Shown here: piece by piece, positions 5,146 to 24,737 of the stretch
How the letters are laid out: each line of letters starts with the position of its first letter
Numbering within the stretch: position 1 is the stretch's first letter
Virus record (IMG/VR): IMGVR_UViG_3300005662_000071
Location: 1 to 46,991 of that record
Direction: 5' to 3' (one strand)
Source of the DNA: a virus
Lineage: Duplodnaviria; Caudoviricetes
DNA length: 46,991 nucleotides
The notes under the pieces: model-generated
Databases searched by the model: none
Seen by the model: the letters and a program-made list of their open reading frames with translations, nothing else
Told to the model about the DNA's origin: nothing
Position numbers and translations under genes: made by a program

Positions 5146-5976
5146 ATGTTTAATTGGTTTAAGAAAACAAAAAGTTGGGTGCGATTCTATTCTATGGATC
5201 AAAATGTAGCCATCATGTACCCAGTAGTTGACAATCGCCTAACTGATCGCGACTGGAACAACGTAGGTGATATCTCAAGAAATAGACCTGAACAGGGCAA
5301 ACAGACTGTTTTAAATTGCCCAGCGATTAAACAAATTACCAGTGTTGGCTATGTACTGCGGGCGCCTGCTGATTTTATAATCAAGACAGGACCAAGTATT
5401 CAACATTTATCGTGGGAAACTCCATTTGTGTTTAAAAGACACAGCGACAAATATACATTCGGTGGTAGTGAATACTACATTAGTTGGCATAGTCCGGCAC
5501 AAACTGAACCGTTGATTCCAAAAGAAATTCCCAGTACTGATAAAAAGTATTTGCATTCAGCAGTAAAAGTTGAGACTCCTTGGCGAGTCAAAGCCAGTGA
5601 CGACATTGTCTTGTTACAGTTGCCTGTGACGTATAATAATGAAGCTAGGTTTACTGCTGCCATTGGCGTACTTGATCCAAAATACATGCATTCTGTCAGT
5701 GTACAACTATTTTGGCATGTGCTCGAAGGCGAAACTTTGGTAAAGGCAGGAACTCCGCTGGTACAGTATGTGCCCGTACAAAGAAGTTTATTTCAAAAAA
5801 ATTCAGTAGACTTTATTGTCGATACTGCTACAGATGTAGAAAAAGAAATTGAAGAAGCTTATGCATTTGCCAACCACAGTCGCTTCCCTAAAACTGATTC
5901 TGCTGGTAACAAGGTGCGAGTAATCACTCAGCTGTTTGAATACTTTAGAAAAAAGTATCCCAAATCTAAAATTTAA
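5146..5976 (+). CDS. Uncharacterised protein (possibly DUF6065/dUTPase-like beta fold), paralog of 19157-19954
   Basis: Shares VRFY, CP.I..I..G.V..APADF.IKT, VKVETPWR..ASDD, DPKYMH and QLFWHVLEGETLV.AGTPL.Q with 19157-19954. The family name is tentative. Confidence 0.6.
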   Translation: MFNWFKKTKSWVRFYSMDQNVAIMYPVVDNRLTDRDWNNVGDISRNRPEQGKQTVLNCPAIKQITSVGYVLRAPADFIIKTGPSIQHLSWETPFVFKRHSDKYTFGGSEYYISWHSPAQTEPLIPKEIPSTDKKYLHSAVKVETPWRVKASDDIVLLQLPVTYNNEARFTAAIGVLDPKYMHSVSVQLFWHVLEGETLVKAGTPLVQYVPVQRSLFQKNSVDFIVDTATDVEKEIEEAYAFANHSRFPKTDSAGNKVRVITQLFEYFRKKYPKSKI

Positions 5977-6560
5977 ATTTTAAGTTTAGTTAGAGGATGC
6001 TTGTTGATAGTTCCTCTAAGAAATGTATTAAAGCTCAATGTAATGCGAGGAGAGTCTCCTTGGTATTCCTCTACCAAATGTTCAACAGAACTGGGAAAAA
6101 TTAACATTTCTCCAGGCGCTAGATTGATACCCCAACGCTTAGAATTATACAAATTTGACTCAATGATATCGTACTCTAGTGTGTCAAATGCACTGGTTAT
6201 AAACACTGTTGCACCTCCTTGATTGTCAGTGGCTAGTGAAACGATACCACTTAAAATAGAATTTGGATGCCAGTGTCTATGATGACTTTGCCCTTTTTCT
6301 GTTTTGTTAACCCATGACTCGGTGATATAAATTTCACATTCCGGTGACGCATTTATAATTCCGTAAAAGTAGGACTGTACTTTTTCCATAATTGCTTGTT
6401 TAACTTGAGCAAATTCTTCTGTGTCTAATACCTGCTGACTACTACTGATACTGTTATTATAATTTTCAAGCCATTCAATGTTAGACATGTCTAAATTTAA
6501 ATCAATACCAGTTTTAAACATTGGCTTGGCAAACAAAGGGATCAGCTGTTCATTAATCAT
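5973..6560 (-). CDS. Putative Fe(II)/2OG oxygenase, TIGR02466/2OG-FeII_Oxy_5-like
   Basis: SWVN..HRHWHPNSILSG..GEMLIFPSSVEHLV..RITLSFN. Start set at MINEQLIPLF (6560) after an AGGTG RBS; the ORF track begins at 6599. Confidence 0.85.
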   Translation of the reverse strand: MINEQLIPLFAKPMFKTGIDLNLDMSNIEWLENYNNSISSSQQVLDTEEFAQVKQAIMEKVQSYFYGIINASPECEIYITESWVNKTEKGQSHHRHWHPNSILSGIVSLATDNQGGATVFITSAFDTLEYDIIESNLYNSKRWGINLAPGEMLIFPSSVEHLVEEYQGDSPRITLSFNTFLRGTINKHPLTKLKI

Positions 6561-6619
6561 TAAAGGGCACCTGTAAGTATGATATATATAGTACTTCACA
6601 CCTGGTTAACAAACAATTT

Positions 6620-7198
6620 ATGAAATTAGAAAAAGACATTGGCATTTGGGAAGGGCTTATTAGAGCAGAAGACTGCCAAGCCCTGATTGATTATTTTCAC
6701 AAAATCAAAGAATCTAAACTAAGCTACACACGATTGGACCTTAGAGAAGCACCCAGTCACAAAAAGAATGACGAGGCGGTGTTTGTCTTAGACCCAGAAA
6801 CTATGCGTGTCATGCCTAATGAAAAACTAGTAGTTCCGTTTATGCAAAAATTTTGGAACTGCTACCGACAGTACATGGAACACTACAGTGTGCTTCTTGA
6901 AACAGGAGACCACCAAGTTAGAGCAATGAAGGTTCAAAAAACTCTGCCCGGTCAAGGATACCACATGTGGCATTTTGAATCAGACAGTCTAGATCGCAGT
7001 GCTAGAATTTGTTCTTGGGCTGTATTTTTAAACGATGTTGAACAGGGTGGCGAGACAGAATTCTTATATCAAAGTACTAGAGTACCTGCAACACAGGGCA
7101 CACTAATGATTTGGCCTGCTGGTTTTCCTCACACACATCGCGGAAATCCTCCGTTAAGTGGAGAAAAATTTATCCTAACAGGTTGGATTGAATTCTAA
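6620..7198 (+). CDS. Fe(II)/2OG oxygenase, prolyl-4-hydroxylase-like
   Basis: GYHMWHFE (HxE), LNDVEQGGETEF, WPAGFPHTHRGNPPLSGEKFILTGW. Confidence 0.9.
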   Translation: MKLEKDIGIWEGLIRAEDCQALIDYFHKIKESKLSYTRLDLREAPSHKKNDEAVFVLDPETMRVMPNEKLVVPFMQKFWNCYRQYMEHYSVLLETGDHQVRAMKVQKTLPGQGYHMWHFESDSLDRSARICSWAVFLNDVEQGGETEFLYQSTRVPATQGTLMIWPAGFPHTHRGNPPLSGEKFILTGWIEF

Positions 7199-7803
7199 TG
7201 GAAGTTTTAAATTTGTTTCCTGTTGAATTTTTTGTTTTTAAAAACAATGCAATTGACAACACTAAACTTATTGCAGAGCTCGAAGCGTTAGATGGCATTG
7301 AAATTAAAAAATCAACAACTATGAGTCTTCTTGTTGATCTAAGAAAAAATGAAAAATTTAAAGAACTGTTCTCTTGGTTTGATCAGTGTCTTGAAGAAAT
7401 TAGACAGACTATGAAATACGATTGCGATCAATTTGAAATTACTAACAGTTGGGTAAATGTAGCCTTGCCTAAGTATAACATGCATCAAAATTATCACAAG
7501 CACTCTATGAGTTTTTATAGTGCTGTCTATTACTTTACAGAAGGCTCTGCTACAGAGTTTGAAGATACAGTAGTTGATCGATCAAGAGCACAGTTAGAAG
7601 TATTACGACACGATTATCAACCGTGGGAAACTGTAGTGCCAGAGCCGGGTAAACTAGTTATTTTTCCTAGCTATGTTTATCATCGAAGCCATGCTCACAT
7701 GGGCGATAAGGCTCGGTATATTTTAAGTTTTAATACATTACCGGCTGGTAAAGTAAACTATCAGTTAGCCACTGATTCAAAAGTACATATTAAGGTTGAG
7801 TAA
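7198..7803 (+). CDS. Putative Fe(II)/2OG oxygenase, TIGR02466-like
   Basis: LFP at the N-terminus, ITNSWVN, YHKHSMSFYSAVYY, PGKLVIFPSYVYH, RYILSFN. Confidence 0.85.
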   Translation: MEVLNLFPVEFFVFKNNAIDNTKLIAELEALDGIEIKKSTTMSLLVDLRKNEKFKELFSWFDQCLEEIRQTMKYDCDQFEITNSWVNVALPKYNMHQNYHKHSMSFYSAVYYFTEGSATEFEDTVVDRSRAQLEVLRHDYQPWETVVPEPGKLVIFPSYVYHRSHAHMGDKARYILSFNTLPAGKVNYQLATDSKVHIKVE

Positions 7804-9302
7804 TGATTAAAAAACTTATAGTCTTAGGTGGTGGTAATGCAGGACTAATGTCTGCGTTGTATCTTAAAAAATCTATTCCGGATTTAGAAATAGCACTGAT
7901 AAAATCTAAAAAGATAGGCACTATTGGTGTTGGTGAAGGGTCAACTGAACATTGGACTATGTTTGCTACCGCAGTAGGTATTAACATCATAGACCTTATC
8001 AATCACTGCGGCGCCACTATTAAAATTGGTGTTAAATTTGAAGACTGGCACGGTGACGGTACTAGTTACTTTCATAGCTTACCAGCACATCTTGTGTCGT
8101 TAGATTCATATACTGGCGCCGCAACTACCATGATGCGCCTAATAGGTGACGGTGTTAGTACCGAAGGACTACACTGGCAGTTACCTATGGACGGCTATGT
8201 CCGTGAACCCCTTACTGACTATTTTCAATTCCATTTTGACAGTGAAAAATTAAACAGTTTCTTAGAAAAGAAATGTGTGTCGTTGGGCATAACAGTAACT
8301 GAAGCAGAAGTAGTCGGGCCTATACTAGACGATCAGGGATTTGTTTCTCAAGTTATTGATGATCAAGGACAGTCTTATTCTGCAGACTTTTTTATAGACA
8401 GTAGCGGATTCAATCGAGTGATTGCTTCTAAGTTAGGAGCAGAATGGGTCAACTGGTCAAAGTATCTACCACTAAACAGTGCTGTAGCATTCCAGACTGC
8501 ATATGAAGAAAAGATTCCGCCATATACTTTGGCCAAGGCAATGTCTAGTGGTTGGCACTGGCGTAGTCCAGTTCAAGATCGTTTTGGTAACGGTTATGTG
8601 TTTAGTGATCAATTTATCAGTGAAGATCAAGCCATAGGCGAAATACAAAAACATTTTAAAGATACAATAAAAGTTGGACGTAAGATTAATTTTGTGTCAG
8701 GCAAAGTTAATCAGGCATGGATTAAAAATTGTGTATCTATTGGTCTTAGCAGTAACTTTGTAGAACCACTGGAAGCCAGTAGTATTTCAACTACTATACA
8801 GCAACTTCGATTGCTATCAGCTTCTATTTGGAACTGGGGTCGAGATGACACTAGTACTATTAAAAAGTATAATAACGTAGTTGACGATATGATGTCAAAC
8901 GTTTTAGACTTTATTCAATTGCATTATTTTACTCAGCGAACTGATACAGAGTTTTGGCGGTGGTGTAAAAATGAAATTACTGTTACAGATTTTAATAAAG
9001 AAAACATAGAAGTGTTTAAAAAGAATTTCGTTAATCAAACAGTCTTACCAGAAGATGGTACTATGCGTAACTTTAGAATCTACGACTGTTTGAATTGGAT
9101 ACAGGTCATGCACGGGTTAAGAATGTTTGATCAATCTAGCATAAAAAAATTATACGAAACTCGGTATGGGAAATACAGAACTGCAGATATGGAATACTTG
9201 TCTAACTTACAGCACGAACCAACAAATGGTTGGATACCTTGTCGACAAGCAGTTAACATGGTTAAACAATTATCAACTACTAACATGGAATATAAATTAT
9301 GA
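7803..9302 (+). CDS. Flavin-dependent tryptophan halogenase family protein
   Basis: GGGNAG FAD motif, IGVGEGS, ATIKIG (catalytic Lys position), GWHWRSP, FVEPLEASS, LHY..R.DTEFW. Confidence 0.9.
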   Translation: MIKKLIVLGGGNAGLMSALYLKKSIPDLEIALIKSKKIGTIGVGEGSTEHWTMFATAVGINIIDLINHCGATIKIGVKFEDWHGDGTSYFHSLPAHLVSLDSYTGAATTMMRLIGDGVSTEGLHWQLPMDGYVREPLTDYFQFHFDSEKLNSFLEKKCVSLGITVTEAEVVGPILDDQGFVSQVIDDQGQSYSADFFIDSSGFNRVIASKLGAEWVNWSKYLPLNSAVAFQTAYEEKIPPYTLAKAMSSGWHWRSPVQDRFGNGYVFSDQFISEDQAIGEIQKHFKDTIKVGRKINFVSGKVNQAWIKNCVSIGLSSNFVEPLEASSISTTIQQLRLLSASIWNWGRDDTSTIKKYNNVVDDMMSNVLDFIQLHYFTQRTDTEFWRWCKNEITVTDFNKENIEVFKKNFVNQTVLPEDGTMRNFRIYDCLNWIQVMHGLRMFDQSSIKKLYETRYGKYRTADMEYLSNLQHEPTNGWIPCRQAVNMVKQLSTTNMEYKL

Positions 9303-10795
9303 TTAACTCGCTATGCATAGTTGGCGGCGGCACCAGCGGCCTAATCACAGCTTTGATGATGAAACAAGGTTGGCCAAACTTAAAAATTACAATGATTGAA
9401 TCTAGTCAGATTGGCATTATTGGAGTAGGCGAAGGGTCTACTGAACATTGGAAGAAATTTATCAATCATATAGGCGTAAGTGTTTCTGAATTAGTTAGAG
9501 AAACCGGTGCTACATTTAAGGTCGGTATTAAATTTACCAACTGGCACGGGGACGGAACTCATTATTTTCATAGCCTAAGTGAACAGTACGGTGGCATGGC
9601 AACTGAAAACGGCTTACCATTTACCTGGATTAGAGCAGTTGGGGAAAACTGGGATCCGTTAGACACTGTGTGGAAACTAAGCCGAGACAGCAGACATGTT
9701 GAACCATTACATGAAATTTTAAGTCAATATCATTTTGATACACATAAATTAAATGATTTCCTACATAGGCTGTGTAGAGAACGTGGTGTAGAAATCATTG
9801 ATGCTGAAATCAATAATGTTGTTTTAGATCAACAAGGCGATGTTGAAAAATTAATTGATGCACAAGGTATAGAACATGCTTACGAGTTCTATGTAGACTG
9901 TAGCGGGTTTAAAAGAATTATTGGATCTAAATTAAATGCAAAATGGATCGATCGCACTAGTCAGTTGCCAATGAATAGTGCTATTGCATTTCAAACAGGC
10001 TACACTGAAGACATCCCTAGTTACACCGAGGCAACTGCACTGAGCAGTGGCTGGTGCTGGAGGATCCCAACACAGGAGCGATATGGTAACGGATATGTGT
10101 TTTGTGATCAATTTATTAACGAAACTAAAGCCTACGACGAAGTTAGCGAACACTATAAAAAATTAGATATCACCGACAATATTCAAGTAGGTAAAAAGAT
10201 TAAATTTGGTGCAGGGCATGTTGAAGAATTCTGGATGAAGAACTGTGTTATGATAGGCCTTAGTGGAATATTTGTTGAGCCACTAGAAGCTAGTAGCATA
10301 GGGACAACAATTCAACAATGCTTCTTATTACTGCCGGCAATAGCATTTTGGGAGAAGGGTGACACTAAAACCGCCCAGGGCTACAATAAGCACATGTCCA
10401 CGATTAGCAATAACATAGTAGACTTTATCCAACTACATTATTTTAGCCAGCGACAAGATTCAGAATTTTGGAAGTGGTGCCAACATAGTCTAGAGTGGAC
10501 CGACTTTAACAAAGAAAATATAGAATATTTTAAAAAACATTTTGTAAATCCTCATTACTTTAATGCACCGCTGATCATGTTTAGTTACTTAAATTACACT
10601 CAAGTCATGCACGGTCTTCGAATGTTTGATCGTAGTCGCATCAATGCATTATATAACGAACACTTTTTAAAGTATAAACCTAGTATAGATAGAGTGCTCT
10701 TAATTAATGAACATGATAACATTGAATCGTTCAGTCATAGAGAATCACTTAACAGATTAAAAGAAAGATATGACACAATTGAAATCAAAATTTGA
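9299..10795 (+). CDS. Flavin-dependent tryptophan halogenase family protein
   Basis: GGGTSG, IGVGEGS, ATFKVG, GWCWRIP, FVEPLEASS; close paralog of the preceding gene. Confidence 0.92.
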   Translation: MINSLCIVGGGTSGLITALMMKQGWPNLKITMIESSQIGIIGVGEGSTEHWKKFINHIGVSVSELVRETGATFKVGIKFTNWHGDGTHYFHSLSEQYGGMATENGLPFTWIRAVGENWDPLDTVWKLSRDSRHVEPLHEILSQYHFDTHKLNDFLHRLCRERGVEIIDAEINNVVLDQQGDVEKLIDAQGIEHAYEFYVDCSGFKRIIGSKLNAKWIDRTSQLPMNSAIAFQTGYTEDIPSYTEATALSSGWCWRIPTQERYGNGYVFCDQFINETKAYDEVSEHYKKLDITDNIQVGKKIKFGAGHVEEFWMKNCVMIGLSGIFVEPLEASSIGTTIQQCFLLLPAIAFWEKGDTKTAQGYNKHMSTISNNIVDFIQLHYFSQRQDSEFWKWCQHSLEWTDFNKENIEYFKKHFVNPHYFNAPLIMFSYLNYTQVMHGLRMFDRSRINALYNEHFLKYKPSIDRVLLINEHDNIESFSHRESLNRLKERYDTIEIKI

Positions 10796-12326
10796 TGCTG
10801 TAGTATTAGGCGGCGGCAGCGCCGGTTGGCTTACAGCATTGTTCTTACAACGTAGTTGGCCATCTTTAAAAATAGCAGTAGTTGAGGATCCTAAACGTCC
10901 ACCTATTATTGCAGGTGAAAGTGGTACTACTACTTTTGTTAGTCTCATGCGATATCTTAAGATTGATGTTGATGATTTTATAAAAGAAGTAAATGCTACT
11001 CCTAAGCTAGGTGGCAAGTTTACAGATTGGAACGGTGTAGGAACAGAGTTTATTCATTGTCTTCAAACTGATCACGCACCTTGGCTCGACGGGTGGACTG
11101 ATTTTGCCGATTCAGAATTAAGTAAACAAGATCTTAAATTAGGGTCGCTCGTTAATATAATGACTGCAGAGCGTCACAAGGATGTATACCTAAGAACGCT
11201 GATTGCCAACGAGATTCCCTTAGCCGATGCATTCTTAGCATCGATGTTTATTAAAGAAAATAAAGTTCCGTTTGGTTCAACTAGCGAAATTCCTTGTATC
11301 CCAATGTGGCATTTTGAAAGTAGATCTGCGGCAGCATACTTTAAGAAGTTAGCACTATCAAGAGAAATAACGCATATTGAAGGTGAATACTTGTCAAGTG
11401 TGCAACAGAGTGACGGTAATATTGAACATATCAAAATAGACTCAAACCGTGAAGTGTACGCTAATTGGTTTTTTGATTGTTCTGGGTTTGCTAGATTATT
11501 ACTAGGCAAAGTTTTAAATGAAGAATTCATTGATTATACAAACTACTTTCCAGCTAGAGCAGTAGTAGCATGGTGGGATGACCCGTGCTATTGTACAACT
11601 ACAAATGCAACTGCAATGCAATACGGTTGGTCATGGAATATTAATTTGCGTCATCGATCTGGCAATGGCTACATCTACGACCCGGATCATATAAATTTAG
11701 ATCAAGCTATCGGCGAAGCAGAAAAAAGATTTAATAAAAAAATAGAACCTATTGCTAATTTTCAGTTTACTCCTGGAATTATGAAACGTGCATGGTCAAA
11801 GAATGTTATAGGTGTTGGCCTTAGTACTGGATTCTTAGAACCGCTAGAAGCAAATGGAGTTGCAGTGATTATTGAAACACTTTATGCACTACAAGATCAT
11901 TGGAAGCCTACCTCCGAGAATAATGTTAGATCTATAGAACATTTTAACAGTAGAGTATTTGCAATAACTGAAGATATTCGAGACTTTCTAGCATTGCATT
12001 ATAGAGGTCAGCGTCGAGATACTGAATTCTGGCGCAGTCATGCTTTTGATAAGCAACGGACTCCAGAAACTCTATCTAAGATCTTAGACAATTGGGGCAA
12101 TTTTTTTAACAATAACGGGCCGGAGCCGTTTGTACATGGGTATAGTCCAACTGCATGGTTAATGGTTTTACAGGCATTAAAGGTGTTTCCTGCTAGTTAT
12201 TTGGCAAAAGTCCATGCAAGAAACTTATCTACCGGAAAAGCTGTACTAGATATCAATCAAAATAAATATAAAACTATTGTTAATCCATTCTGGACAATAG
12301 AGCAGTGGATTGAAAAGACTGCATAA
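10770..12326 (+). CDS. Flavin-dependent tryptophan halogenase family protein (divergent)
   Basis: GGGSAG, IIAGES, ATPKLG, GWSWNINL, FLEPLEANG, LHY..RRDTEFW. Confidence 0.9.
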   Translation: MTQLKSKFDAVVLGGGSAGWLTALFLQRSWPSLKIAVVEDPKRPPIIAGESGTTTFVSLMRYLKIDVDDFIKEVNATPKLGGKFTDWNGVGTEFIHCLQTDHAPWLDGWTDFADSELSKQDLKLGSLVNIMTAERHKDVYLRTLIANEIPLADAFLASMFIKENKVPFGSTSEIPCIPMWHFESRSAAAYFKKLALSREITHIEGEYLSSVQQSDGNIEHIKIDSNREVYANWFFDCSGFARLLLGKVLNEEFIDYTNYFPARAVVAWWDDPCYCTTTNATAMQYGWSWNINLRHRSGNGYIYDPDHINLDQAIGEAEKRFNKKIEPIANFQFTPGIMKRAWSKNVIGVGLSTGFLEPLEANGVAVIIETLYALQDHWKPTSENNVRSIEHFNSRVFAITEDIRDFLALHYRGQRRDTEFWRSHAFDKQRTPETLSKILDNWGNFFNNNGPEPFVHGYSPTAWLMVLQALKVFPASYLAKVHARNLSTGKAVLDINQNKYKTIVNPFWTIEQWIEKTA

Positions 12327-12329
12327 ATA
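12322..12329 (+). promoter_or_regulatory. Late promoter-like motif CATAAATA
   Basis: Overlaps the stop codon of the third halogenase and is followed by GAGGAG and ATG 12350. Confidence 0.55.
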
Positions 12330-12349: not shown

Positions 12350-12520
12350 ATGGCTACATACAAAATGATCCTAAGAGACGCGGATAATCCGGATACATCG
12401 GACCTACACGTTTTCGAAGTTCTTATCACAGCAGATAACAGGCAACAGGCTCAAGCACTCTGTGAACAGCAACACGGATTTAAAAACATTGTTGCAGGCC
12501 CAATTAAAGTTGAAGATTAA
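12350..12520 (+). CDS. Small 56-aa hypothetical protein missing from the ORF track
   Basis: MATYKMILRDADNPDTSDLHVFEVLITADNRQQAQALCEQQHGFKNIVAGPIKVED*. Strong GAGGAG RBS, own promoter motif, and it fills the gap exactly. Confidence 0.8.
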   Translation: MATYKMILRDADNPDTSDLHVFEVLITADNRQQAQALCEQQHGFKNIVAGPIKVED

Positions 12521-13131
12521 TTATTGCGTAGAATGTAGTGCTCTAGCTCGCCTATTCTACGCAATTCAGGACTAGCATATTCAAAGGGCAGTCCTAGGCA
12601 AGACCTAGTATCCCATTTTAAACACGCATCAGCTCCGTTAATATCGACATACTGCAAAAAGCATTGAACTTGGCGGGATCCTTTAAATGGCTCCCGCCAA
12701 TGTTCATTTTTACGTCCGCTATAAATTACCAAATCTCCAACATCTAACAAAACTTCCAGTACTGTGCCGTCATCTTGTTTGATAAACAGCGGCCAGTCGA
12801 CTGCGTCTTTTTCAACACAAACACTAATAGTTACTTCGCTACTTTGTCGATCCTTATGCACTGATAAATCTGAACCTGTATAATAAATTCTAGCATACGA
12901 ATATGTAGGTGCTAGTTTCTTTGATGTTTCTTTTTCAATCAATGGTAGTAATTTAACACTTAATGCTTCAAACATTAAAGGACTATACCTAGCAAAACTG
13001 TTAGAACATAAATCTGCAAAATCTTGGTTAGGATATAACACTTTACAAACGTCTTCCATCATAGAAAATTCTAAAGAAAGAAATTCGCACATTTCTAATG
13101 ATACAGCATTTTTTACAATTATTGGTGTCAT
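12517..13131 (-). CDS. Fe(II)/2OG oxygenase (phage type)
   Basis: PTYSYARIY..LSVHKDR (HxD)..GDLVIYSG..EHWREPF..QCFLQYVD. Confidence 0.85.
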   Translation of the reverse strand: MTPIIVKNAVSLEMCEFLSLEFSMMEDVCKVLYPNQDFADLCSNSFARYSPLMFEALSVKLLPLIEKETSKKLAPTYSYARIYYTGSDLSVHKDRQSSEVTISVCVEKDAVDWPLFIKQDDGTVLEVLLDVGDLVIYSGRKNEHWREPFKGSRQVQCFLQYVDINGADACLKWDTRSCLGLPFEYASPELRRIGELEHYILRNN

Positions 13132-16231: not shown

Positions 16232-16943
16232 TGGGATTAATCCTATACATATTTCTATCAATTCTATTTTCTTCTGGATCTGTAGGGAATCTATTCCAGC
16301 AAGGAATGCTCATACTTAATCTCTTGCCTGTTGGATATGCGCAATGATACATTCTTGATGGGATATACAGTGCGTCACCGGGTGATAATTCTACATCAAT
16401 TGCAACATCTAGGTCGTTGGCACTTAGTCGATTATTCATAGTGCCAACTTTATACATATAAGAAATTCTGTTATTGAATACTTTCCATCTAGTAGTACCT
16501 TCAACTTGAATAATAAAGTTACAAGGATAATCATCGTGAATTGTAAAAGATTTAGAATCAGTTAGGCCACAATAAACATGTATTGCTGAATTAACATCAA
16601 ACATCCTTTCAAATATGTCTAACAAATGATTAGTTTTTTCGTTATAAAATCCGTAATTCATTATTATTAGACTGTGTCCTTGATGAAACTTTTCAAATAA
16701 GAACTTTTTATTTTGTGCAGTTTTTCCGTACATCCAGGCTTTTGTTGATCTTGGTATGTCAACTTTAAGACCGGTGTTATCAATCATCTCAAAATCGTAG
16801 AGGTACGGATTGTTCATACAATTTTCAACGTCTTGCCAGGACAATAATTCTCCAGGATTAGCTAATAATTGTTTGAAAAAATGAGGCTTGTCGTCTACTA
16901 ACAAATTAGTTTCGTTGAGTATGCGTTGACCTATAGTATTCAT
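16224..16943 (-). CDS. JmjC/Cupin_4 oxygenase (ROX: YcfD/NO66-like)
   Basis: SFTIHDDYPCNFIIQVEGTTRWKV and LSPGDALYIPSRMYHCA..LSMS match the JmjC ribosomal-oxygenase signature. Confidence 0.85.
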   Translation of the reverse strand: MNTIGQRILNETNLLVDDKPHFFKQLLANPGELLSWQDVENCMNNPYLYDFEMIDNTGLKVDIPRSTKAWMYGKTAQNKKFLFEKFHQGHSLIIMNYGFYNEKTNHLLDIFERMFDVNSAIHVYCGLTDSKSFTIHDDYPCNFIIQVEGTTRWKVFNNRISYMYKVGTMNNRLSANDLDVAIDVELSPGDALYIPSRMYHCAYPTGKRLSMSIPCWNRFPTDPEENRIDRNMYRINPNV

Positions 16944-17538
16944 CGTCTGTCCTTATTATTTTTGTGTTGAATGATATTGATATCCTATCGTTGTCGGTTT
17001 CATTTTGATCAACACCGTGCGGAAGCCACCCGGGAAACATTATTAATTTTCCAGTCTCTGGTGTAAATGCTATTGCACTATTATTAATTTGTGTGTATTT
17101 TGCAATCCGTGCGGCACTTGCAATGGCAAAATCTTGGCTATAAGATTTATAAAAATTTATGTTGCCCTGGCCCGGGCCAGCTTTTAAATAAAATGCACCT
17201 GACATAAAACTATTATCATGTATATGTACAGAATTTGAGTGATACCTACGATTAACATTTATCCATAAATTTTCTAAAACAGTAAAACAACTAGCAGGAT
17301 CATACCCAAAATCTAATACACATTGTTCAGTTTGTTTTATAATTTTTTGTTCAATATCTGCAAACTCTGCATATACTCCGGGTCTAAAATCATGACTTTG
17401 CCAACCGCCTTGATTGCTCAGTCGGCGCCCTTGCGGATCTTTTTGCATTAATCGATATGTTAGATCGATCATGGGGTTGGTGTCAATACCAGTATGTTCC
17501 CACCAAATTGGCGTTGGAAAATAAAAGTCTAAGTTCAT
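16906..17538 (-). CDS. Putative Fe(II)/2OG oxygenase, TIGR02466-like
   Basis: FPTPIW, SNQGGWQS, WINVN, VHIHDNSFMSGAFYL, FPGWLPHGV, RISISFN. Start at MNLDFY (17538, ATGA overlap); the track begins at 17604. Confidence 0.9.
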   Translation of the reverse strand: MNLDFYFPTPIWWEHTGIDTNPMIDLTYRLMQKDPQGRRLSNQGGWQSHDFRPGVYAEFADIEQKIIKQTEQCVLDFGYDPASCFTVLENLWINVNRRYHSNSVHIHDNSFMSGAFYLKAGPGQGNINFYKSYSQDFAIASAARIAKYTQINNSAIAFTPETGKLIMFPGWLPHGVDQNETDNDRISISFNTKIIRTDDEYYRSTHTQRN

Positions 17539-18341
17539 TTTAAAATATCCCTCATAGTCATTGATTGACGCTGAAGATGGCTGAACGCAAATGCATGACT
17601 CCATCTAAAATCTACATCGGATGTGATATGCGGATTATGACACACACCTGATGGATATATTGTCATGGTGCGTTCTTTGGTAGGGATACTACCTAGTAAT
17701 TCAAACCCCCATCTAGCTAACTCGCTGTCTGATAGGTTGAACCAACTATCGGCGCGATGCGGAATTTCGCTTTTACTTTTCCACTCTTCGTGTAGTGGAT
17801 GCTGTGTATCTATCTGGAAGTCGTATAATTCGTTGCTCATGATCCCGTGATACTTGTAGAGCTTTGTTGAGCTCGTTGACACAGCATGGTCTGTAAACCA
17901 TAAATTCCCTACTATACCGTGAACATAATCAATGTGTGGAATTCTCCAACATTTTATAGGTTTAGCTTTTTCTTTAAAGTAAACGTTTCCCCATTCGTGA
18001 ATTTGAGGATCAACAATATCTGCACTATTAAATGTTTTTAGATATAGCTCTCGTAATAAGAAACAAATATCCTTACTGATCCACTCGGGAACATGAATCG
18101 TATCGAACGGGTTTGGATCAAAATTACTAGGGTGATTATTATCTTTTTGTATAGGAAAACTTGCAATTAAATTTTTAAATAGGTCGAACATTTCGTCTGT
18201 CTCAAACGGATGTTCAGCTTCCCAATATCCTATTCCGTAGTCTAGCTCTATGTAATTACGTTGCCAACTATCAAGAGTCTTTAACTTTATTACTTCGTTA
18301 AAGTGATTAGCATCCGGGTAGCATATTTTAAAATCAATCAT
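17535..18341 (-). CDS. Putative Fe(II)/2OG oxygenase-like protein
   Basis: RIPHID (HxD), VGNLWF, IYPSGVCHNP, FRWS; divergent. Confidence 0.6.
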   Translation of the reverse strand: MIDFKICYPDANHFNEVIKLKTLDSWQRNYIELDYGIGYWEAEHPFETDEMFDLFKNLIASFPIQKDNNHPSNFDPNPFDTIHVPEWISKDICFLLRELYLKTFNSADIVDPQIHEWGNVYFKEKAKPIKCWRIPHIDYVHGIVGNLWFTDHAVSTSSTKLYKYHGIMSNELYDFQIDTQHPLHEEWKSKSEIPHRADSWFNLSDSELARWGFELLGSIPTKERTMTIYPSGVCHNPHITSDVDFRWSHAFAFSHLQRQSMTMRDILK

Positions 18342-18940
18342 TTTATGTTAAAGGTCATTACTATGCGTTCTTCATCGGTTAGATTAGGTTGTACTCTATG
18401 CTTTAGCCACCCTGGGAATATCAGTACATCGTTAGTAGCAACTTCAACTTGGGAATATAAAGTAGTTTCAGGTATAATTGGAAACGTACTCTTATGATAC
18501 TCTAACGGATCTTTAAATTCGATATTTCCAGAATTAGGCGGAGCTTTGAGGTAACAACTGGCAACAAACGTTCCAAAATTATGTATATGTTCATCTGTGT
18601 AACCGCCACGATGGTGACGATTACACCAAGAATTTATAACTTCGGAATAGTTATGAACAAATTTGTAACAGTTGCGAATTTCTGCAACCTTTGTCCCTAG
18701 CCACATTTGAAACTTTTCTAATTCTAACCATGTGTGAGGTTGATAGCTGTTATCAACTGATACTGTTGAGATTGCATCTCCTTTTTCTAAGGCAGAATTT
18801 ATCTCTACTTTGGAAAATAAATCTTCTAATTTAGGTCGAAGTTCATCTAAATTAAAAGTGTAATTATATTTCCAAATTAAAGGCGGAAACGTGTATAGTC
18901 CGCCATCAGGCCGCAGTACTTGCTGACTCATAGGTCTCAA
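18338..18940 (-). CDS. Putative Fe(II)/2OG oxygenase, TIGR02466-like
   Basis: SWCN..DEHIH..YLKAPPNSGNIEFKDP..IFPGWLKHRV..RIVMTFNI. Confidence 0.9.
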   Translation of the reverse strand: MRPMSQQVLRPDGGLYTFPPLIWKYNYTFNLDELRPKLEDLFSKVEINSALEKGDAISTVSVDNSYQPHTWLELEKFQMWLGTKVAEIRNCYKFVHNYSEVINSWCNRHHRGGYTDEHIHNFGTFVASCYLKAPPNSGNIEFKDPLEYHKSTFPIIPETTLYSQVEVATNDVLIFPGWLKHRVQPNLTDEERIVMTFNIK

Positions 18941-19151
18941 TAGCTAACTGTAGTCCCATCAGTACTCCTTCCATTTTGAGTACGTCGGTTGCCAAATCTT
19001 GACGTTTGCTAAAATCAATAGAGGTGATGCCATACGGATTTAATTTGACGTTGGCAAAATCTTCCTCCATCTTTGCAAGCTCTTGTTCGTTTTGTTCTTT
19101 TTGTAAAGAAACATTTTTCATAGTTTCTTCTAAAATAGATTTAAATGTCAT
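18906..19151 (-). CDS. Small helical/coiled-coil hypothetical protein
   Basis: 81 aa, E/K/Q/L-rich, GGAG RBS upstream, in line with the operon. Confidence 0.7.
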   Translation of the reverse strand: MTFKSILEETMKNVSLQKEQNEQELAKMEEDFANVKLNPYGITSIDFSKRQDLATDVLKMEGVLMGLQLAIETYESASTAA

Positions 19152-19156
19152 AGTAA

Positions 19157-19954
19157 TTACTCCTTAGTTTTATACTTATTTAGAACCAAGCTGGTTCTGG
19201 CCAAACGTGACTTGAGACTGTCGTGAGGCAATAGTGTGCAATTAGCGGCAAAATTAAAACTTCGCTCTCTTTCAAAATCTTTTTCGGTTGCTTTAACGAT
19301 TTCTACATTTAATTTCGACATTGATAGTGTTGATTTCTCGATTGGAATAATCTGACACAAAGGAGTTCCTGCCCTGACCAATGTTTCGCCTTCAAGTACA
19401 TGCCAAAATAATTGCACGTTTATGGCATGCATATACTTTGGATCAAGAAATCCGTGTGCGGCTGTAAAGCGAGGTTCTTTGTTATAGCTAATTGGGATTT
19501 GTAAGAAAATTAAATCGTCACTGGCATCTAGTCGCCATGGCGTTTCAACTTTTATTACACTCTTAAGTGTCGTGCTTGCATCATCTAATAACGGCTCAAC
19601 TTGCGATGGTGTATGAGATGCTATGTAGTTAGCAGTACCCGGAGTACCTTTACTAAACTTAATAGGTTCAGCCCACTCAAAAAATGTACCATCTCCCGAT
19701 GTCTTAATTACAAAATCAGCAGGTGCAGTAACGACCCATCCTGTAGTAATCAGTTTTCTAATGCCTGGGCAGTGTTTAGAACTTAATTCAGTAGTATTAG
19801 TTTGCTCTTCAAATTCAAATGGGCGGCGGACTGCCGTTGCTCTGACAATAGGAAATAGATCATATACCCCTGACTCAAGGGTATAAAATCTCACATACGA
19901 TTTCTTTTTAAAAAATGATAGTAGTTTATTAAACAGCGTGATCATCTTTTCCAC
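19157..19954 (-). CDS. Uncharacterised protein, paralog of 5146-5976
   Basis: CPGIRKLITTGWVVTAPADF, VIKVETPWR, QLFWHVLEGETLVRAGTPLCQ. Confidence 0.6.
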   Translation of the reverse strand: MEKMITLFNKLLSFFKKKSYVRFYTLESGVYDLFPIVRATAVRRPFEFEEQTNTTELSSKHCPGIRKLITTGWVVTAPADFVIKTSGDGTFFEWAEPIKFSKGTPGTANYIASHTPSQVEPLLDDASTTLKSVIKVETPWRLDASDDLIFLQIPISYNKEPRFTAAHGFLDPKYMHAINVQLFWHVLEGETLVRAGTPLCQIIPIEKSTLSMSKLNVEIVKATEKDFERERSFNFAANCTLLPHDSLKSRLARTSLVLNKYKTKE

Positions 19955-21545
19955 CGTAGATATTTTGTTTTAAAAATTCATAGTGGCTAGGTAGTGTCTT
20001 AACATGGTCTACAACAAAATCTCTGTAGTTTTCATAACTGCGCTTAGTAAAGCCAATTTCTTGTTCCTTAACTAAAGGATCCATTCTATTACCACCGTAG
20101 AAAATTAATTCTTTTGTAGATATAGATTTAACTCCCATGCCTGCGGCAATAAAAATTGAGCCTGTCAAATCTTGCTGATATGTTTGGCCTCCTACAATGT
20201 TTCCTAATAAGTTTGGAAACATTGCATTCATTAGCATAAATTCACCCATTTGATCAGGACAGTATTCATTTAATTCTGTGCACCAGCGCCAGTATGGTGT
20301 ATCTGTCCTGTTTGACAGCGCATAGTGTAATGCTATAAAATCTCTAAATTTGCACACTTCATTTTCAACAGACAGATTAAACCCTTCTATCTCTGATCGA
20401 GTAATAAACCCTTGTCTACGATTTAGAGATTCTACTAGTTTAATAATGTTCTCATGTGTTGTCAATAATCCTGTTGATTCTAAAGGTTCTACAAATCCAT
20501 AACTTAGGCCAACACCTACAACGTTAGCGACCCATGCACGGCGACGTCTACCGTGCTTAATATCAATATGAATCATTTCTGCATTTTCTGCTCGTTCTTT
20601 AGATCCGGTAGTGGCAAGATGTTGTCTAAATTCTTTTTCTGCTTCTTCTTGGGTGCAGAATCTTGATGAATATACATAGCCTGTTCCAATTCTGTTCCAC
20701 AACGGAATGTTCCAAACCCATCCGTTGCCGAGCGCATGACAGTCTGTTACGTTGTGCATCTCTTTTTCACGATCTTCGTACGGGATACGGCAAGCCATGG
20801 CTTTATTATTGGCTAACATCTTTTCAAAAGGTCTAAATTCTGATCCCATCCATCCTTCTAACAGAATAGATCTAAAACCAGTACAGTCGATCCAGAGATC
20901 TGATTTAAGTACAGTTGCATCAGTTAGCATTATATCAGTTATGTTGCCTAAGTGATCTTTCTTATGTGAGTGTACATCACCTATAATATGTGTAACACCA
21001 TTGGGAATTGCTATGGTTTCTTTTAAATATTTTCCAAGTAGCTGAGCATCCATGTGATATGCAGTATCGTACTTAAAGTCAAAGTTTCTTAAAAGATGTT
21101 GTTCATCTTTTGTTTGCTTGTTATACTTGGCTAGCATGGTATTGCCAGTGCATACAAACTCTGCAAAGGTACTAGGACCGTACTCGTCGGGGTACAGAGT
21201 CGATAGCTCAGACCAGCTTTGAATTCCATTTGGCTTATCGGTAAAATCAAATCCTGCACTAAAAGGATATTCAAAGAATGTGCCGTCATTTTGTCTAAAA
21301 TTAGTAAAACGAATAGAATTTTTATAGGTAGCATTACATGCCGCCATCCAATCTTCATCTTTAAGACCTAGTAGTCCAAAAAACTTGTTAATATGTCCCA
21401 GTGTGCTTTCGCCCACGCCAATAGTACCTACTTTTGAAGATTCTACTAGGGTAACATCTAGATGTGGGCAAAGTTTTGATAGCGCGGCTGCTGTCATCCA
21501 GCCTGAACTGCCACCGCCAATAATTGTAACCTTTTTGATCTGCAT
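19929..21545 (-). CDS. Flavin-dependent tryptophan halogenase family protein (canonical motifs)
   Basis: GGGSSG, IGVGEST, ATYKNS, GWVWNIPL, FVEPLESTG, LHY..RTDTPYW. Confidence 0.93.
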   Translation of the reverse strand: MQIKKVTIIGGGSSGWMTAAALSKLCPHLDVTLVESSKVGTIGVGESTLGHINKFFGLLGLKDEDWMAACNATYKNSIRFTNFRQNDGTFFEYPFSAGFDFTDKPNGIQSWSELSTLYPDEYGPSTFAEFVCTGNTMLAKYNKQTKDEQHLLRNFDFKYDTAYHMDAQLLGKYLKETIAIPNGVTHIIGDVHSHKKDHLGNITDIMLTDATVLKSDLWIDCTGFRSILLEGWMGSEFRPFEKMLANNKAMACRIPYEDREKEMHNVTDCHALGNGWVWNIPLWNRIGTGYVYSSRFCTQEEAEKEFRQHLATTGSKERAENAEMIHIDIKHGRRRRAWVANVVGVGLSYGFVEPLESTGLLTTHENIIKLVESLNRRQGFITRSEIEGFNLSVENEVCKFRDFIALHYALSNRTDTPYWRWCTELNEYCPDQMGEFMLMNAMFPNLLGNIVGGQTYQQDLTGSIFIAAGMGVKSISTKELIFYGGNRMDPLVKEQEIGFTKRSYENYRDFVVDHVKTLPSHYEFLKQNIYGGKDDHAV

Positions 21546-21570: not shown

Positions 21571-21578
21571 TATTTATA
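21571..21578 (-). promoter_or_regulatory. Perfect T4 late promoter TATAAATA heading the halogenase/oxygenase operon
   Basis: Plus strand tatttata at 21571-21578; followed on the minus strand by an AAGGAA RBS and ATG 21545. Confidence 0.75.
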
Positions 21579-21597: not shown

Positions 21598-21625
21598 AAT
21601 AAAAAAGGCACCCTAAAGTGCCTTT
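21598..21625 (-). terminator. Rho-independent terminator of the tail fibre block
   Basis: On minus: AAAGGCAC-TTTAGG-GTGCCTTT hairpin with a T-run (TTTTTTATT) after the GC stem, about 20 nt after the stop of 21647-22138. Confidence 0.8.
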
Positions 21626-21646: not shown

Positions 21647-22138
21647 TTAGTTACTGCTCCAACCAGAATAACGTTTCCACGCTGGCAACTCAGCAGTAGA
21701 AGGTCTAGGTTCTTTATCTGCGCCTGGCTCACTTACAATAGATTCCGCCATCATTTCTTCTAATGTTTTTGGAACTACTGGTGTTGGCTTAGGGATAATA
21801 GACTTAACGTTGGTGATGTGTTGATACCAGTCACCTTCTGTACTAATGGTTCCATTAGTTCTTAGTTCATGATATAACATGTCTAGTTGTTGGCCAATTT
21901 GTCCATAGGCTACAGATCTAGCAACACCGTTGTTAGTAAACGGGCCGTCTCTTTCAATCCATACCATTTCTTGAGCAGATGGACTCCACTCTAGTGTCCA
22001 ATCTAATGTAATCTCGTCAGGTGCGTTGACCCATTGAATAGTTGCATCAGGGCCGCAGTAAATCTCATAGTCTTCACCTGGATCTACAATTTGTTGTACC
22101 CAACCTTGATAACCTATTAATGCTTTTTTCATAATCAA
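21647..22138 (-). CDS. Tail-fibre-associated (assembly chaperone-like) protein
   Basis: YGQIGQQLDMLYH..W...I..VK..IPKP pattern seen in small genes that follow phage fibre genes; position supports this. Confidence 0.5.
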   Translation of the reverse strand: MIMKKALIGYQGWVQQIVDPGEDYEIYCGPDATIQWVNAPDEITLDWTLEWSPSAQEMVWIERDGPFTNNGVARSVAYGQIGQQLDMLYHELRTNGTISTEGDWYQHITNVKSIIPKPTPVVPKTLEEMMAESIVSEPGADKEPRPSTAELPAWKRYSGWSSN

Positions 22139-22143: not shown

Positions 22144-22998
22144 TTATTTGTATTCTTCAATAACAACAATTCCAGGGCGACCATCTGATCCCCTATGTCC
22201 GTGAAAGTGTCCGCCGGTGCCTCCAGTGCCTGGTGCTGAATGCCCTTGGTGGTTATGTGCAAAATGTCCACCTTGCGGGTGACCACTTGGAGCAGCCCCG
22301 CCAAAATACGTTGTGCCGCCTGGGCCAAAGCTGTGGTGGTGATCACCACCACTGCCTTGATGTAAGTTTAAGTCACCGCCAGAACCGTTTCCACTTACGC
22401 CGCCAGAGTGTTGATTTTGTCTATTGGCTCCGTGTCCGCCACCTGCTGACATATACGGGCCAAAGCTAGTAGTATTGCCGTTGCCGCCTGCACCTGAATA
22501 ATAAGTGCCGCCGCCACCGCCGCCAATAGTAACATTTACTGAGCTTATTCCAGTTACATCCATAACTCTCTCAGAATAGCCGCCTGCGGCACCTGATTCA
22601 CCATGTCCGCTGGCACCGCCACCGCCACCTACTAATTTTACTCTAATGTATCTAACGCCGCCTGGTCTATTCCAAGTGCCGTTACTGGTGAATACTTGCA
22701 TACCGCTAAAGCCAAGAGTTGAATATTCATACCCGTTAGCTGAACCGTTCATTCTTAACACAGTATTAGCACTGCCAACACTAGATAACCCAGTACCGCC
22801 TCTGCTAACTGCAAGACTGCCAGTAACTACACTTGAATTTAAATTTACTGCGCTAGCCGCAAATTTTCCAGAAGTTACTGCACCGTCTTGTATGTTACTT
22901 GCAGATACAGTAGTAGATGCAATTTTTGCTCCGGTAATAGTACCGTCAGCAAACGAGGTATCAATTAAATTTTTTAACGTTTGATAATTAAATGGCAT
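22144..22998 (-). CDS. Gly/His-rich tail fibre/adhesin-like protein (paralog 3)
   Basis: MPFNYQTLKN start, about 10-residue periodic shaft, FTSNGTW.RP.GV..I.V..VGGGGG glycine-rich domain, 15 His in the C-terminal domain. Confidence 0.7.
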   Translation of the reverse strand: MPFNYQTLKNLIDTSFADGTITGAKIASTTVSASNIQDGAVTSGKFAASAVNLNSSVVTGSLAVSRGGTGLSSVGSANTVLRMNGSANGYEYSTLGFSGMQVFTSNGTWNRPGGVRYIRVKLVGGGGGASGHGESGAAGGYSERVMDVTGISSVNVTIGGGGGGTYYSGAGGNGNTTSFGPYMSAGGGHGANRQNQHSGGVSGNGSGGDLNLHQGSGGDHHHSFGPGGTTYFGGAAPSGHPQGGHFAHNHQGHSAPGTGGTGGHFHGHRGSDGRPGIVVIEEYK

Positions 22999-23010
22999 CC
23001 TAAATCTCTC

Positions 23011-23874
23011 TTAAAAGAACTCTGTAATAACAACTAACCCTGGACGACCATCAGAGCCTCTATGTCCGCTAAAGTAGCCACTTGTGCCACCTGTTCCCGG
23101 AGCTGAATGTCCTTGGTGGTTATGTGCAAAGTGGCCTCCTTGTGGATGTCCTGCAGGTGCAGGTCCTCCCCAAAAACTTGATCCGCCCATACCCGATGAT
23201 CGCTGTTCATGACTGCCACCACCGCCACCGTAGACATTCAAGTCTCCGCCTGATCCAACACCAGGTAATCCACCATTGTGTTGATTATGTCTGTTGGCTC
23301 CATGACCACCACCTGCTGAAACATATGGTCCAAAACTAGTAGAGTTTCCGTTGCCACCTGCGTTTGAGTAGTATGTTCCGCCACCTCCACCGCCGATGGT
23401 AATATTAACGTTATTAATGCTGGTTACATCTAACATTCTTTCTGCGTAGCCGCCTGCGGCACCTGACTCTCCGTGGCCGCTACCGCCGCCACCTGCACCT
23501 TGAACTTGAATTTGTATATATCTAACTCTACTGTCGCCCTTTGACCAAGTACCGTTACCAGTAAAGACGACCATGCGATAAATTCCAGAAGGTTTAAATT
23601 CTGTTGCGTTATTAGATGAGTTAGTTGTTAGCACATGATACGCAGATCCAAATCCAGTTTGTCCTGTACCGCCTCTACTAAACGGAAGTGTACCGGAAAC
23701 TGTCGCAGAGCCTAAGTTTACAGATCCCACGCCCATTTGAGTTGATGTGATTGTTCCGTTAGCTATTTTTGAATTAGTCACCGCGTTGGCAGCTAAGTCT
23801 GATCCTGTTACTGTAGAATCAACTAGTGCTTGACTTCCTGTTAAATTCTTTAATACTTGATAATTAAATGGCAT
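23011..23874 (-). CDS. Gly/His-rich tail fibre/adhesin-like protein (paralog 2)
   Basis: Same architecture; GHPQGGHFAHNHQGHSAPGTGG..GHRGSDGRPG. Confidence 0.7.
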   Translation of the reverse strand: MPFNYQVLKNLTGSQALVDSTVTGSDLAANAVTNSKIANGTITSTQMGVGSVNLGSATVSGTLPFSRGGTGQTGFGSAYHVLTTNSSNNATEFKPSGIYRMVVFTGNGTWSKGDSRVRYIQIQVQGAGGGGSGHGESGAAGGYAERMLDVTSINNVNITIGGGGGGTYYSNAGGNGNSTSFGPYVSAGGGHGANRHNQHNGGLPGVGSGGDLNVYGGGGGSHEQRSSGMGGSSFWGGPAPAGHPQGGHFAHNHQGHSAPGTGGTSGYFSGHRGSDGRPGLVVITEFF

Positions 23875-23885
23875 GTCTACTTCTC

Positions 23886-24737
23886 TTAATAAAAGTTAGT
23901 TACAACAACTATACCTGGACGGCCATCTGACCCTCTATGCCCGTGAAAGTGGGCGCCTGCTCCACCTGTTCCCGGAGCTGTATGTGTTTGATGATTATGT
24001 GCAAAGTGTCCGCCTTGTGGATGATTACCCGGGGCGCCGCCACCAAAGAATGTATTTGCACAACTTTGAGCACTATAAGCATGATGGCTAAAGCCGCCGC
24101 CGCTGTGAATATTTAAGTTTCCACCTGATCCTACACCACTAACGCCACCCGAATGTTGGTTCTGTCTATTGGCTCCGTGTCCACCACCTGCTGACACATA
24201 TGGGCCAAAACTGGTGCCGTCGCCGTTTCCGCCTGCACTTGCGTAGTATGTGCCGCTGCCGCCACCTCCTACAGAAATATTAACTGAACTAATTCCGGTT
24301 ACATCTAAGAATCTTTCAGCATATCCACCAGCACCACCGCCTTCGCCGTGGCCGCTGCCACCGCCAGCGCCTGCTTGTACTTGTACTTTGATGTACTTAA
24401 CACCTGCAGGTCGTGTCCAGGTTCCGCCACCGGTCCAAACTTGCATACTTTGAACACCGTGATTTTCCCAGCTTAGGCCAGAACCGTTACTTTGTAGTGC
24501 TCTATTAGCACCTCCAAAACTTCCTAGATTTAAGCCGCCTGCGGCAACAGTTAGAGTGCCTGTTACAGTTGAAGTACTAACATCAACTGCATTAGTTGCA
24601 AGCTCTGCTGAACCAATAACACCTGATTGAATTTTAGATGCGTCAATTGAACTATCAGCTAGGTCAGCCGCTGTTAGTGTACCGTCAATAATTGACGCAT
24701 TTGTAATGTTCTTAAGTGTTTGATAATTAAACGGCAT
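23886..24737 (-). CDS. Gly/His-rich tail fibre/adhesin-like protein (paralog 1)
   Basis: Same architecture; NHPQGGHFAHNHQTHTAPGTGG..GHRGSDGRPG. Confidence 0.7.
   Translation of the reverse strand: MPFNYQTLKNITNASIIDGTLTAADLADSSIDASKIQSGVIGSAELATNAVDVSTSTVTGTLTVAAGGLNLGSFGGANRALQSNGSGLSWENHGVQSMQVWTGGGTWTRPAGVKYIKVQVQAGAGGGSGHGEGGGAGGYAERFLDVTGISSVNISVGGGGSGTYYASAGGNGDGTSFGPYVSAGGGHGANRQNQHSGGVSGVGSGGNLNIHSGGGFSHHAYSAQSCANTFFGGGAPGNHPQGGHFAHNHQTHTAPGTGGAGAHFHGHRGSDGRPGIVVVTNFY

Follow-up and report, generated by a model that had tools for sequence, protein, structure and literature searches.

Introduction

On what do the many tailoring enzymes encoded by some tailed phages act? The question is raised by a 47-kb virus record of a large, uncultured aquatic phage (Duplodnaviria; Caudoviricetes; IMG/VR record IMGVR_UViG_3300005662_000071, positions 1 to 46,991, hereafter the window), in which a 16.4-kb island of enzyme genes (positions 5146-21545) adjoins three genes for Gly/His-rich (GH) proteins. 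A preliminary description of the window had proposed that these enzymes hydroxylate and halogenate phage proteins. Its inventory was confirmed: there are 13 oxygenase-fold genes, four halogenase-family genes (PF04820) and three GH genes, the island is flanked by neck and tail-completion genes on the left and by giant fibre genes on the right, and none of the 30 + 8 window proteins scanned matches nonribosomal peptide synthetase or polyketide synthase families. The island does consist of enzymes, as had been stated, with the correction that it also includes two DUF6065-like genes, open reading frames (ORFs) of 81 and 56 residues, and a gene for a helper of ~160 residues. The proposed phage-protein substrate is partly supported, gaining from the joint presence of the genes, a predicted fold, a late-type promoter and an NO66-like JmjC oxygenase, and losing from the gene copy numbers and from the linkage of three of the halogenases (H1-H3). 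With modest confidence, we favour the view that the enzymes modify conserved loops of the Gly/His-rich tip proteins.

A fixed core of GH, helper and halogenase genes

Comparison with relatives reveals a fixed core of smaller extent than the island. It comprises the GH genes, the helper gene and a gene (HX) for an orthologue of the halogenase VirX1, which are inherited as a unit. Using GH genes as anchor 268 loci were collected, of which 266 have a GH domain scoring above 100 bits and 125 remained after dereplication. HX lies within 3.5 kb in all 103 dereplicated loci with enough flanking sequence, without exception, the other 22 being too short. In the reverse direction GH is found upstream in each of the 41 informative HX loci (45 distinct, 4 too short). 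Likewise, in all 19 cultured-phage GH records (10 phage names, duplicates included) an HX-type gene of the same strand follows downstream at a distance of 0.6-3.3 kb. Four isolates of S-RIM44 have GH, helper and HX and four others lack matches to any of these; one core-less isolate, checked directly, has a different distal fibre region. The two loci that were dropped are L324, without GH, and L323, whose divergent domain lacks the invariant Glu and His; the PF21722-like gene of L323 lies in a 95%-complete provirus without halogenase. Co-occurrence across relatives, suggested earlier as a check, thus holds for presence, whereas the expected co-variation of copy number was not found: three GH genes accompany 0 to 13 oxygenases. 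Outside the core clade, within a wider phage-only clade, linkage is seen without the usual adjacency: in S-H35, 85 kb separate a divergent GH gene from a sister-clade halogenase, and the halogenase of Sf-CH11 sits between two other PF21722 genes.

As judged from its sequence, HX is a full-length VirX1 orthologue, scoring over the PF04820 cut-off and containing GGGSSG, WVWNIP and ATYK. VirX1 itself (PDB entry 6QGM) stems from cyanophage Syn10, whose gene matches HX at 53% by tblastn and lies in the same cassette. A review describes it as an iodinase that forms trimers and whose open active site admits large phenols, and gives no natural pathway for it (PMC8407142). All four halogenases of the window match PF04820 with E-values of 1e-85 to 1e-105 and keep GxGxxG and the A-T-x-K lysine. 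The flavin reductase family PF01613, the only one tried, was not found in five related virus records, one of which is complete.

Predicted structure and conservation of the GH proteins

The three GH paralogues contain 15, 12 and 15 His. The peptide that the preliminary description had singled out for mass spectrometry is present in two of them, the third reading HNHQTH. Folding of the GH domain from an 81-sequence alignment gave a model with a predicted local distance difference test score (pLDDT) of 90.8, while GH3 without alignment reached 41.7 only. The model matches fibre protein gp24 of phage Pam3 (PDB entry 7YPX) with Z 20.5 over 176 of 188 residues at a root-mean-square deviation of 2.5 (Foldseek E 1.2e-7), and also the Bxb1 tail tip and the glycine-rich domain of ALK. 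The GH domain is therefore predicted to be a tip of the Pam3 type, combining TNF-like and polyglycine-II elements, with six loops that bear the His residues; reading the GH sequence onto the Pam3 plan places 15 of the 15 His of GH3 in loops. By analogy with Pam3, the domain would be located at a fibre tip of the virion. A complex prediction for the GH domain, the helper and HX scored 0.00, which is no evidence either way.

Pam3 gp24 forms a trimeric tip that has six glycine-rich loops and a hypervariable end, and is accompanied by the 162-residue chaperone gp25 (PMC9608196). The window shares the predicted fold, the six glycine-rich loops and an adjacent helper gene of ~160 residues. Unlike the hypervariable Pam3 tip, the GH loops are conserved and His-rich, and the GH genes come as 1-4 paralogues; Pam3 is not among the 60 listed of 65 halogenase records. 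Across 487 distinct GH domains, five positions (one each of Glu, Tyr and Phe, and two of His) show 99-100% conservation and an Asn shows 95%, the near-invariant loop residues being Glu134, Tyr167, Asn192, His197 and His220 in GH3 numbering. In the window's lineage the loops of GH2 and GH3 are more conserved (0.85-0.87) than the shaft (0.67-0.68), which is not the pattern of a hypervariable receptor-binding tip. Such loops would be unusual for a host-range determinant and fit sites kept for enzymes or metal.

The helper is similar in position and size to Pam3 gp25, which suggests that it may be a fibre chaperone. It matches 20 cultured-phage records, i.e., the 19 GH records and Sf-FR1. No similarity to chains in the PDB was detectable, and its family lead, XkdW, has a score of 0.87 only.

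The NO66-like oxygenase and the loop-3 His

Among the 13 oxygenases eight score above a Pfam cut-off, two below, and three were assigned by PHROG matches only. A metal-binding motif, HxD/E or HxH, is present by pattern in all 13, with HxH in five. The triad is kept across homologues for 11 of the 13; O3 has no homologue past the cut and the alignment of O7 did not return the motif.

The JmjC oxygenase J10 has only NO66, ycfD and one cupin-4 protein as PDB matches; with 239 residues it corresponds only to the catalytic part of NO66-type enzymes. NO66, MINA53 and ycfD hydroxylate His or Arg in proteins, and NO66 acts on a His within a Gly-Gly-Gly-Asn-His-Gln-His stretch, in which the site follows a Gly run (PMC4556315). 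In the GH proteins from 65 dereplicated cassettes with J10, all 185 resolved domains have Gln or Asn directly before the loop-3 residue His197, compared to 4 of 50 domains from 17 cassettes without J10. The genome of Sf-FR1 contains no J10 and its cassette neither O11 nor O12; its three paralogues all read Arg-His at this place, as opposed to Gln-His in the related Sf-FP1. Five further cassettes have Gln with no J10 in view, in one of which J10 lies just beyond the end of the locus. This possible pairing of enzyme and site is a lead, not a result. Two other candidate pairings were considered: a link between O12 and HPQ failed on L106, L340 and L343, and one between O4 and HP[QN]GG fits the cultured set and is probably one phylogenetic event.

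Late-type control signals

A TATAAATA box upstream of HX matches the late promoter of T4 and cyanophages (PMC2984593). All 36 distinct relatives have TAAATA in the 60 bases that precede HX, against an expectation of 4.3. In the cultured cyanophages and most loci of a second large-phage lineage, the first enzyme gene starts 6-40 bases after the helper gene. These signals suggest that the enzymes from HX on are expressed late. A second box, ATAAATA at 12323-12329, precedes the 56-residue ORF, where two runs of enzyme genes converge. Matches to the island also come from contigs of freshwater RNA libraries (run X3: 29 of 30 bins; mostly 90-95% alike); since contigs cannot show transcription, these matches are given no weight here.

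Accessory oxygenases and movement of the cassette

The oxygenases are accessory genes that come and go: 13 are present in the window, about 3-10 in cultured cyanophages and 0-1 in the second large-phage lineage (L128-L136, L177-L193, L313 and L318-L322). The cassette of this lineage consists of three GH genes, the helper, a Cys-rich, U32-like protein of 410 residues, 0-1 oxygenase and HX. The 410-residue protein contains E-x-C-x3-C and further conserved Cys; U32 is its sole family lead (ESM Atlas feature match 0.95, with PF01136 on 20% of members), profile searches having given no Pfam or PDB match. Relatives occur in 126 cultured-phage records, including P-SSM4, where the gene lies behind fibre genes, and Ralstonia phage RP12.

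The backbone of the window is PA5oct/Atu_ph07-like. Its tail-completion gene is nearest to those of Sinorhizobium phage Phosso, Pseudomonas PA5oct-like phages and Agrobacterium phage Atu_ph07 (33-34%), so that the phage is not a cyanophage of the Kyanoviridae. Its gp15 is 47-54% identical to that of the second lineage and 24-29% to that of the three Kyanoviridae measured. The core shows the opposite: GH, HX and helper are 65, 64 and 53% identical to those of cyanophage S-CREM1, and 43-49, 45-46 and 30-42% to those of the second lineage, its backbone relatives, and HX nests with Syn10 and S-CREM1 in a quick tree (SH-aLRT 100). It follows that the block has moved between phage families.

The preliminary description had treated tandem arrays of this kind as undescribed. 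In fact, Iyer et al. reported in 2010 an array in cyanophage Syn9 with ten dioxygenases, two halogenases and a Cys-bearing gene of dUTPase fold, and proposed that it makes halogenated secondary metabolites (PMC2938197). Syn9 gp38-gp54 have the order and families seen in the window, including the small ORF, about 10 oxygenases and a JmjC protein of the MINA/NO66 clade, and the minus-strand run of the window is syntenic gene for gene with Syn10 and S-CREM1. The window differs in that it belongs to a PA5oct/Atu_ph07-like phage outside the Kyanoviridae and has a second, convergent unit with three halogenases and three oxygenases. The array is thus of a known kind, here expanded and in a different phage lineage. 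The passages of the 2010 report on the Syn9 array draw no link to the adjacent Gly/His genes; what is proposed there is that collagen-like and tail-collar proteins are the substrates of another, bacterial operon of the hydroxylase/sulfotransferase type (PMC2938197). Genome papers file viral halogenases and 2-oxoglutarate (2OG) oxygenases routinely as auxiliary metabolic genes, with guessed roles in antibiotic protection or DNA repair (PMC9964418, PMC9146016, PMC2984593). A literature search whose coverage left out most subscription papers found none tying these enzymes to fibre modification, nor did it turn up an earlier mention of their constant association with a conserved tip family, of the smaller core or of the U32-like substitution.

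Proposed function and alternative explanations

If the enzymes act on the loops, the cassette would be a mobile module for the fibre tip, with late-made enzymes that decorate this tip. The helper would hold the nascent tip, as gp25 does in Pam3. The halogenase, probably together with a flavin reductase of the host, would attach I, Br or Cl to the invariant Tyr or to a His, and each oxygenase may hydroxylate one loop residue (His, Gln/Asn, Pro or Arg), the result being an adhesin surface that is chemically decorated and probably binds metal. H1-H3, O1-O3 and the DUF6065-like gene dUa form a second, separately promoted unit, the target of which may be another structural protein. A bolder version, which we regard as possible rather than probable, is a programmable tip code: VirX1-type halogenation combined with interchangeable, site-specific hydroxylases (2OG, JmjC or oxygen-independent U32 type) would produce hydroxy-His, hydroxy-Gln or hydroxy-Asn as metal ligands, and the resulting halogenated, iron-binding adhesin, a siderophore mimic, would be the natural substrate of VirX1 and the first halogenated virion protein.

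A number of observations weigh against modification of the GH proteins. No modified GH peptide has been seen. The virion proteome of S-SZBM1 (30 table rows) lists gp51-54 and lacks the GH proteins gp48 and gp49; its detection was shallow, with gp51 identified by one peptide and only standard modifications included in the search. Only the VirX1-clade halogenase is strictly linked to GH; H1-H3 form a separate clade, members of which are also found with no GH gene in view, and S-MbCM6 and L237 have clade halogenases without a GH match. The distances of GH and HX correlate (rho 0.69 overall), which is not specific, because in the 45 pairs for which a backbone gene is available HX follows that gene, gp15 (rho 0.82), no less closely than it follows GH (rho 0.71). 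With respect to J10, L317, one of the five further cassettes above, keeps Gln without J10 on its 86-kb contig, and L313 has no Gln, yet carries a weaker J10-family gene elsewhere; the association can be traced to about two independent events (sign test on independent pairs, p 0.5) and is inseparable from O11. The NO66 motif NHxH does not occur in the three GH proteins of the window, in which NHQxH and NQH are present. Finally, linkage by itself does not separate a protein substrate from the synthesis of a ligand.

The latter possibility extends the proposal of Iyer et al.: the enzymes would convert a host amino acid, nucleotide or pigment into a halogenated, hydroxylated small molecule, which is either released or bound in the Glu/Tyr/Asn/His pocket of the tip, e.g., as a siderophore or metabolite mimic. 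VirX1 indeed halogenates free small arenes (PMC8407142), which counts against modification of the tip as well, and the same enzyme families adjoin TonB receptors in bacteria (PMC2938197). Seventeen enzymes are many for three proteins of 28 kDa. The DUF6065-like gene keeps a G-x-L-D-x-x-Y stretch, which we take to resemble dUTPase motif 3 and which points to a nucleotide-like substrate, and U32 relatives have RNA bases and quinone rings as their substrates. A small molecule is nevertheless an unlikely product in our view, since family scans of the window revealed no scaffold, ligase or transferase gene and J10 falls in a group of protein hydroxylases. Moreover, the cassette ranges from a halogenase with one U32-like gene to 17 enzymes with the tip fold unchanged, and a single product is therefore hard to fit.

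Strict co-inheritance, and swapping together with the tip gene, would also be explained without virion modification if the enzymes modified a host target tied to the tip, such as a receptor or envelope precursor, and so blocked superinfection or re-adsorption of progeny; in phage T5 a receptor-blocking gene travels with its adhesin. The same tip and enzymes are, however, found in cyanophages and in the PA5oct/Atu_ph07-like lineage, the hosts of which are probably different, and the enzymes lie behind a late-type box or directly behind fibre genes, which makes a host target the least probable of the explanations considered. Hardly more credible is hitchhiking, i.e., a pile-up of auxiliary metabolic genes behind fibre genes in a recombination hotspot with no functional tie. 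It would account for the presence of oxygenases and halogenases in other cyanophage islands, for the relatives of H1-H3 without GH in view and for the fact that neighbouring genes move together. Against it stand the 103 informative loci without exception, the cassette order kept at two different Kyanoviridae genome positions and in two other lineages, and S-H35, which retains both genes at a distance of 85 kb.

Modification of the tip loops has the merit of naming a concrete candidate substrate, testable in cultured phages (Syn9/Syn10, S-RIM44 with and without the cassette, Sf-FP1 versus Sf-FR1). If it is true, halogenation and hydroxylation of virion proteins would enter phage biology, an abundant class of genes would shift from host metabolism to virion assembly, VirX1 would gain its missing natural target, and site-specific protein halogenases could become available as tools.

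Layout of the island and other features

The island consists of two convergent gene runs and one divergent gene (Table 1). The minus-strand run has the order GH1-GH2-GH3-helper-HX-dUb-81-residue ORF-O13...O4 and the plus-strand run the order O2-O3-H1-H2-H3; dUa and O1 form the left edge, and the 56-residue ORF lies where the runs meet.

Table 1. Positions of genes and control signals in and beside the enzyme island of the window.
Feature	Position	Strand	Assignment	Basis
dUa	5146..5976	+	DUF6065-like, invariant Cys-Pro; accessory; paralogue of dUb	phrog_7084 E 1e-46
O1	5973..6599	-	2OG-Fe(II) oxygenase, HxH type (TIGR02466)	PF13759 E 2e-18
O2	6620..7198	+	Prolyl-4-hydroxylase-like 2OG oxygenase	PF13640 E 8e-9; H118/E120/H173
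O3	7198..7803	+	2OG oxygenase, HxH type	PF13759 E 1.5e-14
H1	7803..9302	+	Flavin-dependent halogenase family, outside VirX1 clade	PF04820; WHWRSP at WxWxIP motif
H2	9299..10795	+	Flavin-dependent halogenase family, outside VirX1 clade	PF04820; WCWRIP fits WxWxIP
H3	10770..12326	+	Flavin-dependent halogenase family, outside VirX1 clade	PF04820; WSWNIN at WxWxIP motif
56-residue ORF	12350..12520	+	Conserved ORF	74 tblastn matches among fetched loci; no Pfam match
O4	12517..13131	-	2OG oxygenase (PHROG label 'ferrochelatase')	phrog_2954 E 6e-44; H92/D94/H144 conserved
O5	13128..13739	-	2OG oxygenase, HxH type	phrog_2696, phrog_81; H116/H118/H158/R170
O6	13736..14356	-	2OG oxygenase	PF13759 below cut-off; H116/D118/H184/R195
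O7	14347..14958	-	DUF6445 oxygenase	PF20043 E 2e-20
O8	14955..15659	-	DUF6445 oxygenase	PF20043 E 1.5e-13; H120/D122/H210/R224
O9	15656..16261	-	2OG oxygenase; family most often retained in reduced cassettes	Pfam and conserved triad
J10	16224..16943	-	JmjC oxygenase, NO66/MINA/ycfD group; candidate His (or Gln/Asn) hydroxylase	PF08007 E 5e-16; best PDB match NO66 E 3e-6
O11	16906..17604	-	2OG oxygenase, HxH type (TIGR02466)	Pfam/TIGR profiles, triad
O12	17535..18341	-	DUF6445-related oxygenase	phrog_1644 E 4e-19; H136/D138/H235/R246
O13	18338..18940	-	2OG oxygenase, HxH type	PF13759 E 3e-17
81-residue ORF	18906..19151	-	Conserved ORF (Syn9 gp44-like position)	Synteny; no Pfam/PHROG family
dUb	19157..19954	-	DUF6065-like Cys-Pro protein	phrog_7084; DUF6065 weak in 4/32 homologues
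HX	19929..21545	-	VirX1-orthologous flavin-dependent halogenase; core gene	6QGM E 9e-194; clade with Syn10, S-CREM1; linkage
Box	21571..21578	-	TATAAATA late-promoter-type box upstream of HX	TAAATA conservation
Hairpin	21604..21625	-	Intrinsic-terminator-like, between helper gene and box	Terminator-like pattern in 32/36 relatives
Helper	21647..22138 (likely ATG start 22132)	-	~160 residues (T163; Syn9 gp40-like); core gene	phrog_1787
GH3	22144..22998	-	Predicted Gly/His-rich fibre-tip protein with C-terminal TNF-like + polyglycine-II domain; core gene	PF21722; model; 7YPX match
GH2	23011..23874	-	GH paralogue	PF21722
GH1	23886..24737	-	GH paralogue	PF21722

The two DUF6065-like proteins dUa and dUb are 40% identical. 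A dUTPase fold has been asserted for the Syn9 homologue (PMC2938197); a profile search with dUa and dUb gave no significant PDB match. Within 12517-18341, PHROG labels proteins with a 2OG triad as 'ferrochelatase', 'DNA endonuclease V' and 'minor coat protein'; these names look wrong and propagate into RefSeq.

To the right of the GH genes, the window encodes two giant fibre-like proteins of 3071 and 2514 residues (25871-35086 and 35126-42670) with repeated CBM5/12-like modules, which are other possible targets of the H1-H3 unit. In relatives, genes for subtilisin-like (by eye) and fibre-like proteins lie between a Nudix gene and H1-H3 (L203:3888-5492 and L217:1-1265).

Several GH and halogenase loci deviate in their details. 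In L137 (4694-6283) and L128 (2372-3547), additional domains of about 180-260 residues are joined to GH paralogues or interrupt them. In S-CREM1 the annotation gives the first GH gene as a 122-residue fragment followed by a gap (L002:9191-9998), so that this gene looks split, the cassette being intact. In the variant of L308-L311, H2- and H3-type halogenases stand beside HX behind three GH genes, loop 3 is poor in His (ARRVGGH), and no J10 or O11 is in view. L237 has a gene for a long protein with a Gly-rich end upstream, and L080 (12027-12896) has a gene for a QueG/reductive-dehalogenase-like 4Fe-4S protein directly before the halogenase (TIGR02486 E 6e-7, below cut-off). Five contigs from prokaryote genomes have a halogenase at 41% or more, all in phage-looking DNA. 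L239 (NZ_RMVE01000006.1) is a 188-kb contig in the assembly of Nonlabens xiamenensis; the 17.6 kb that were read are nearly gene for gene those of a P-TIM40-like cyanophage, and the contig is probably a contamination of that assembly.

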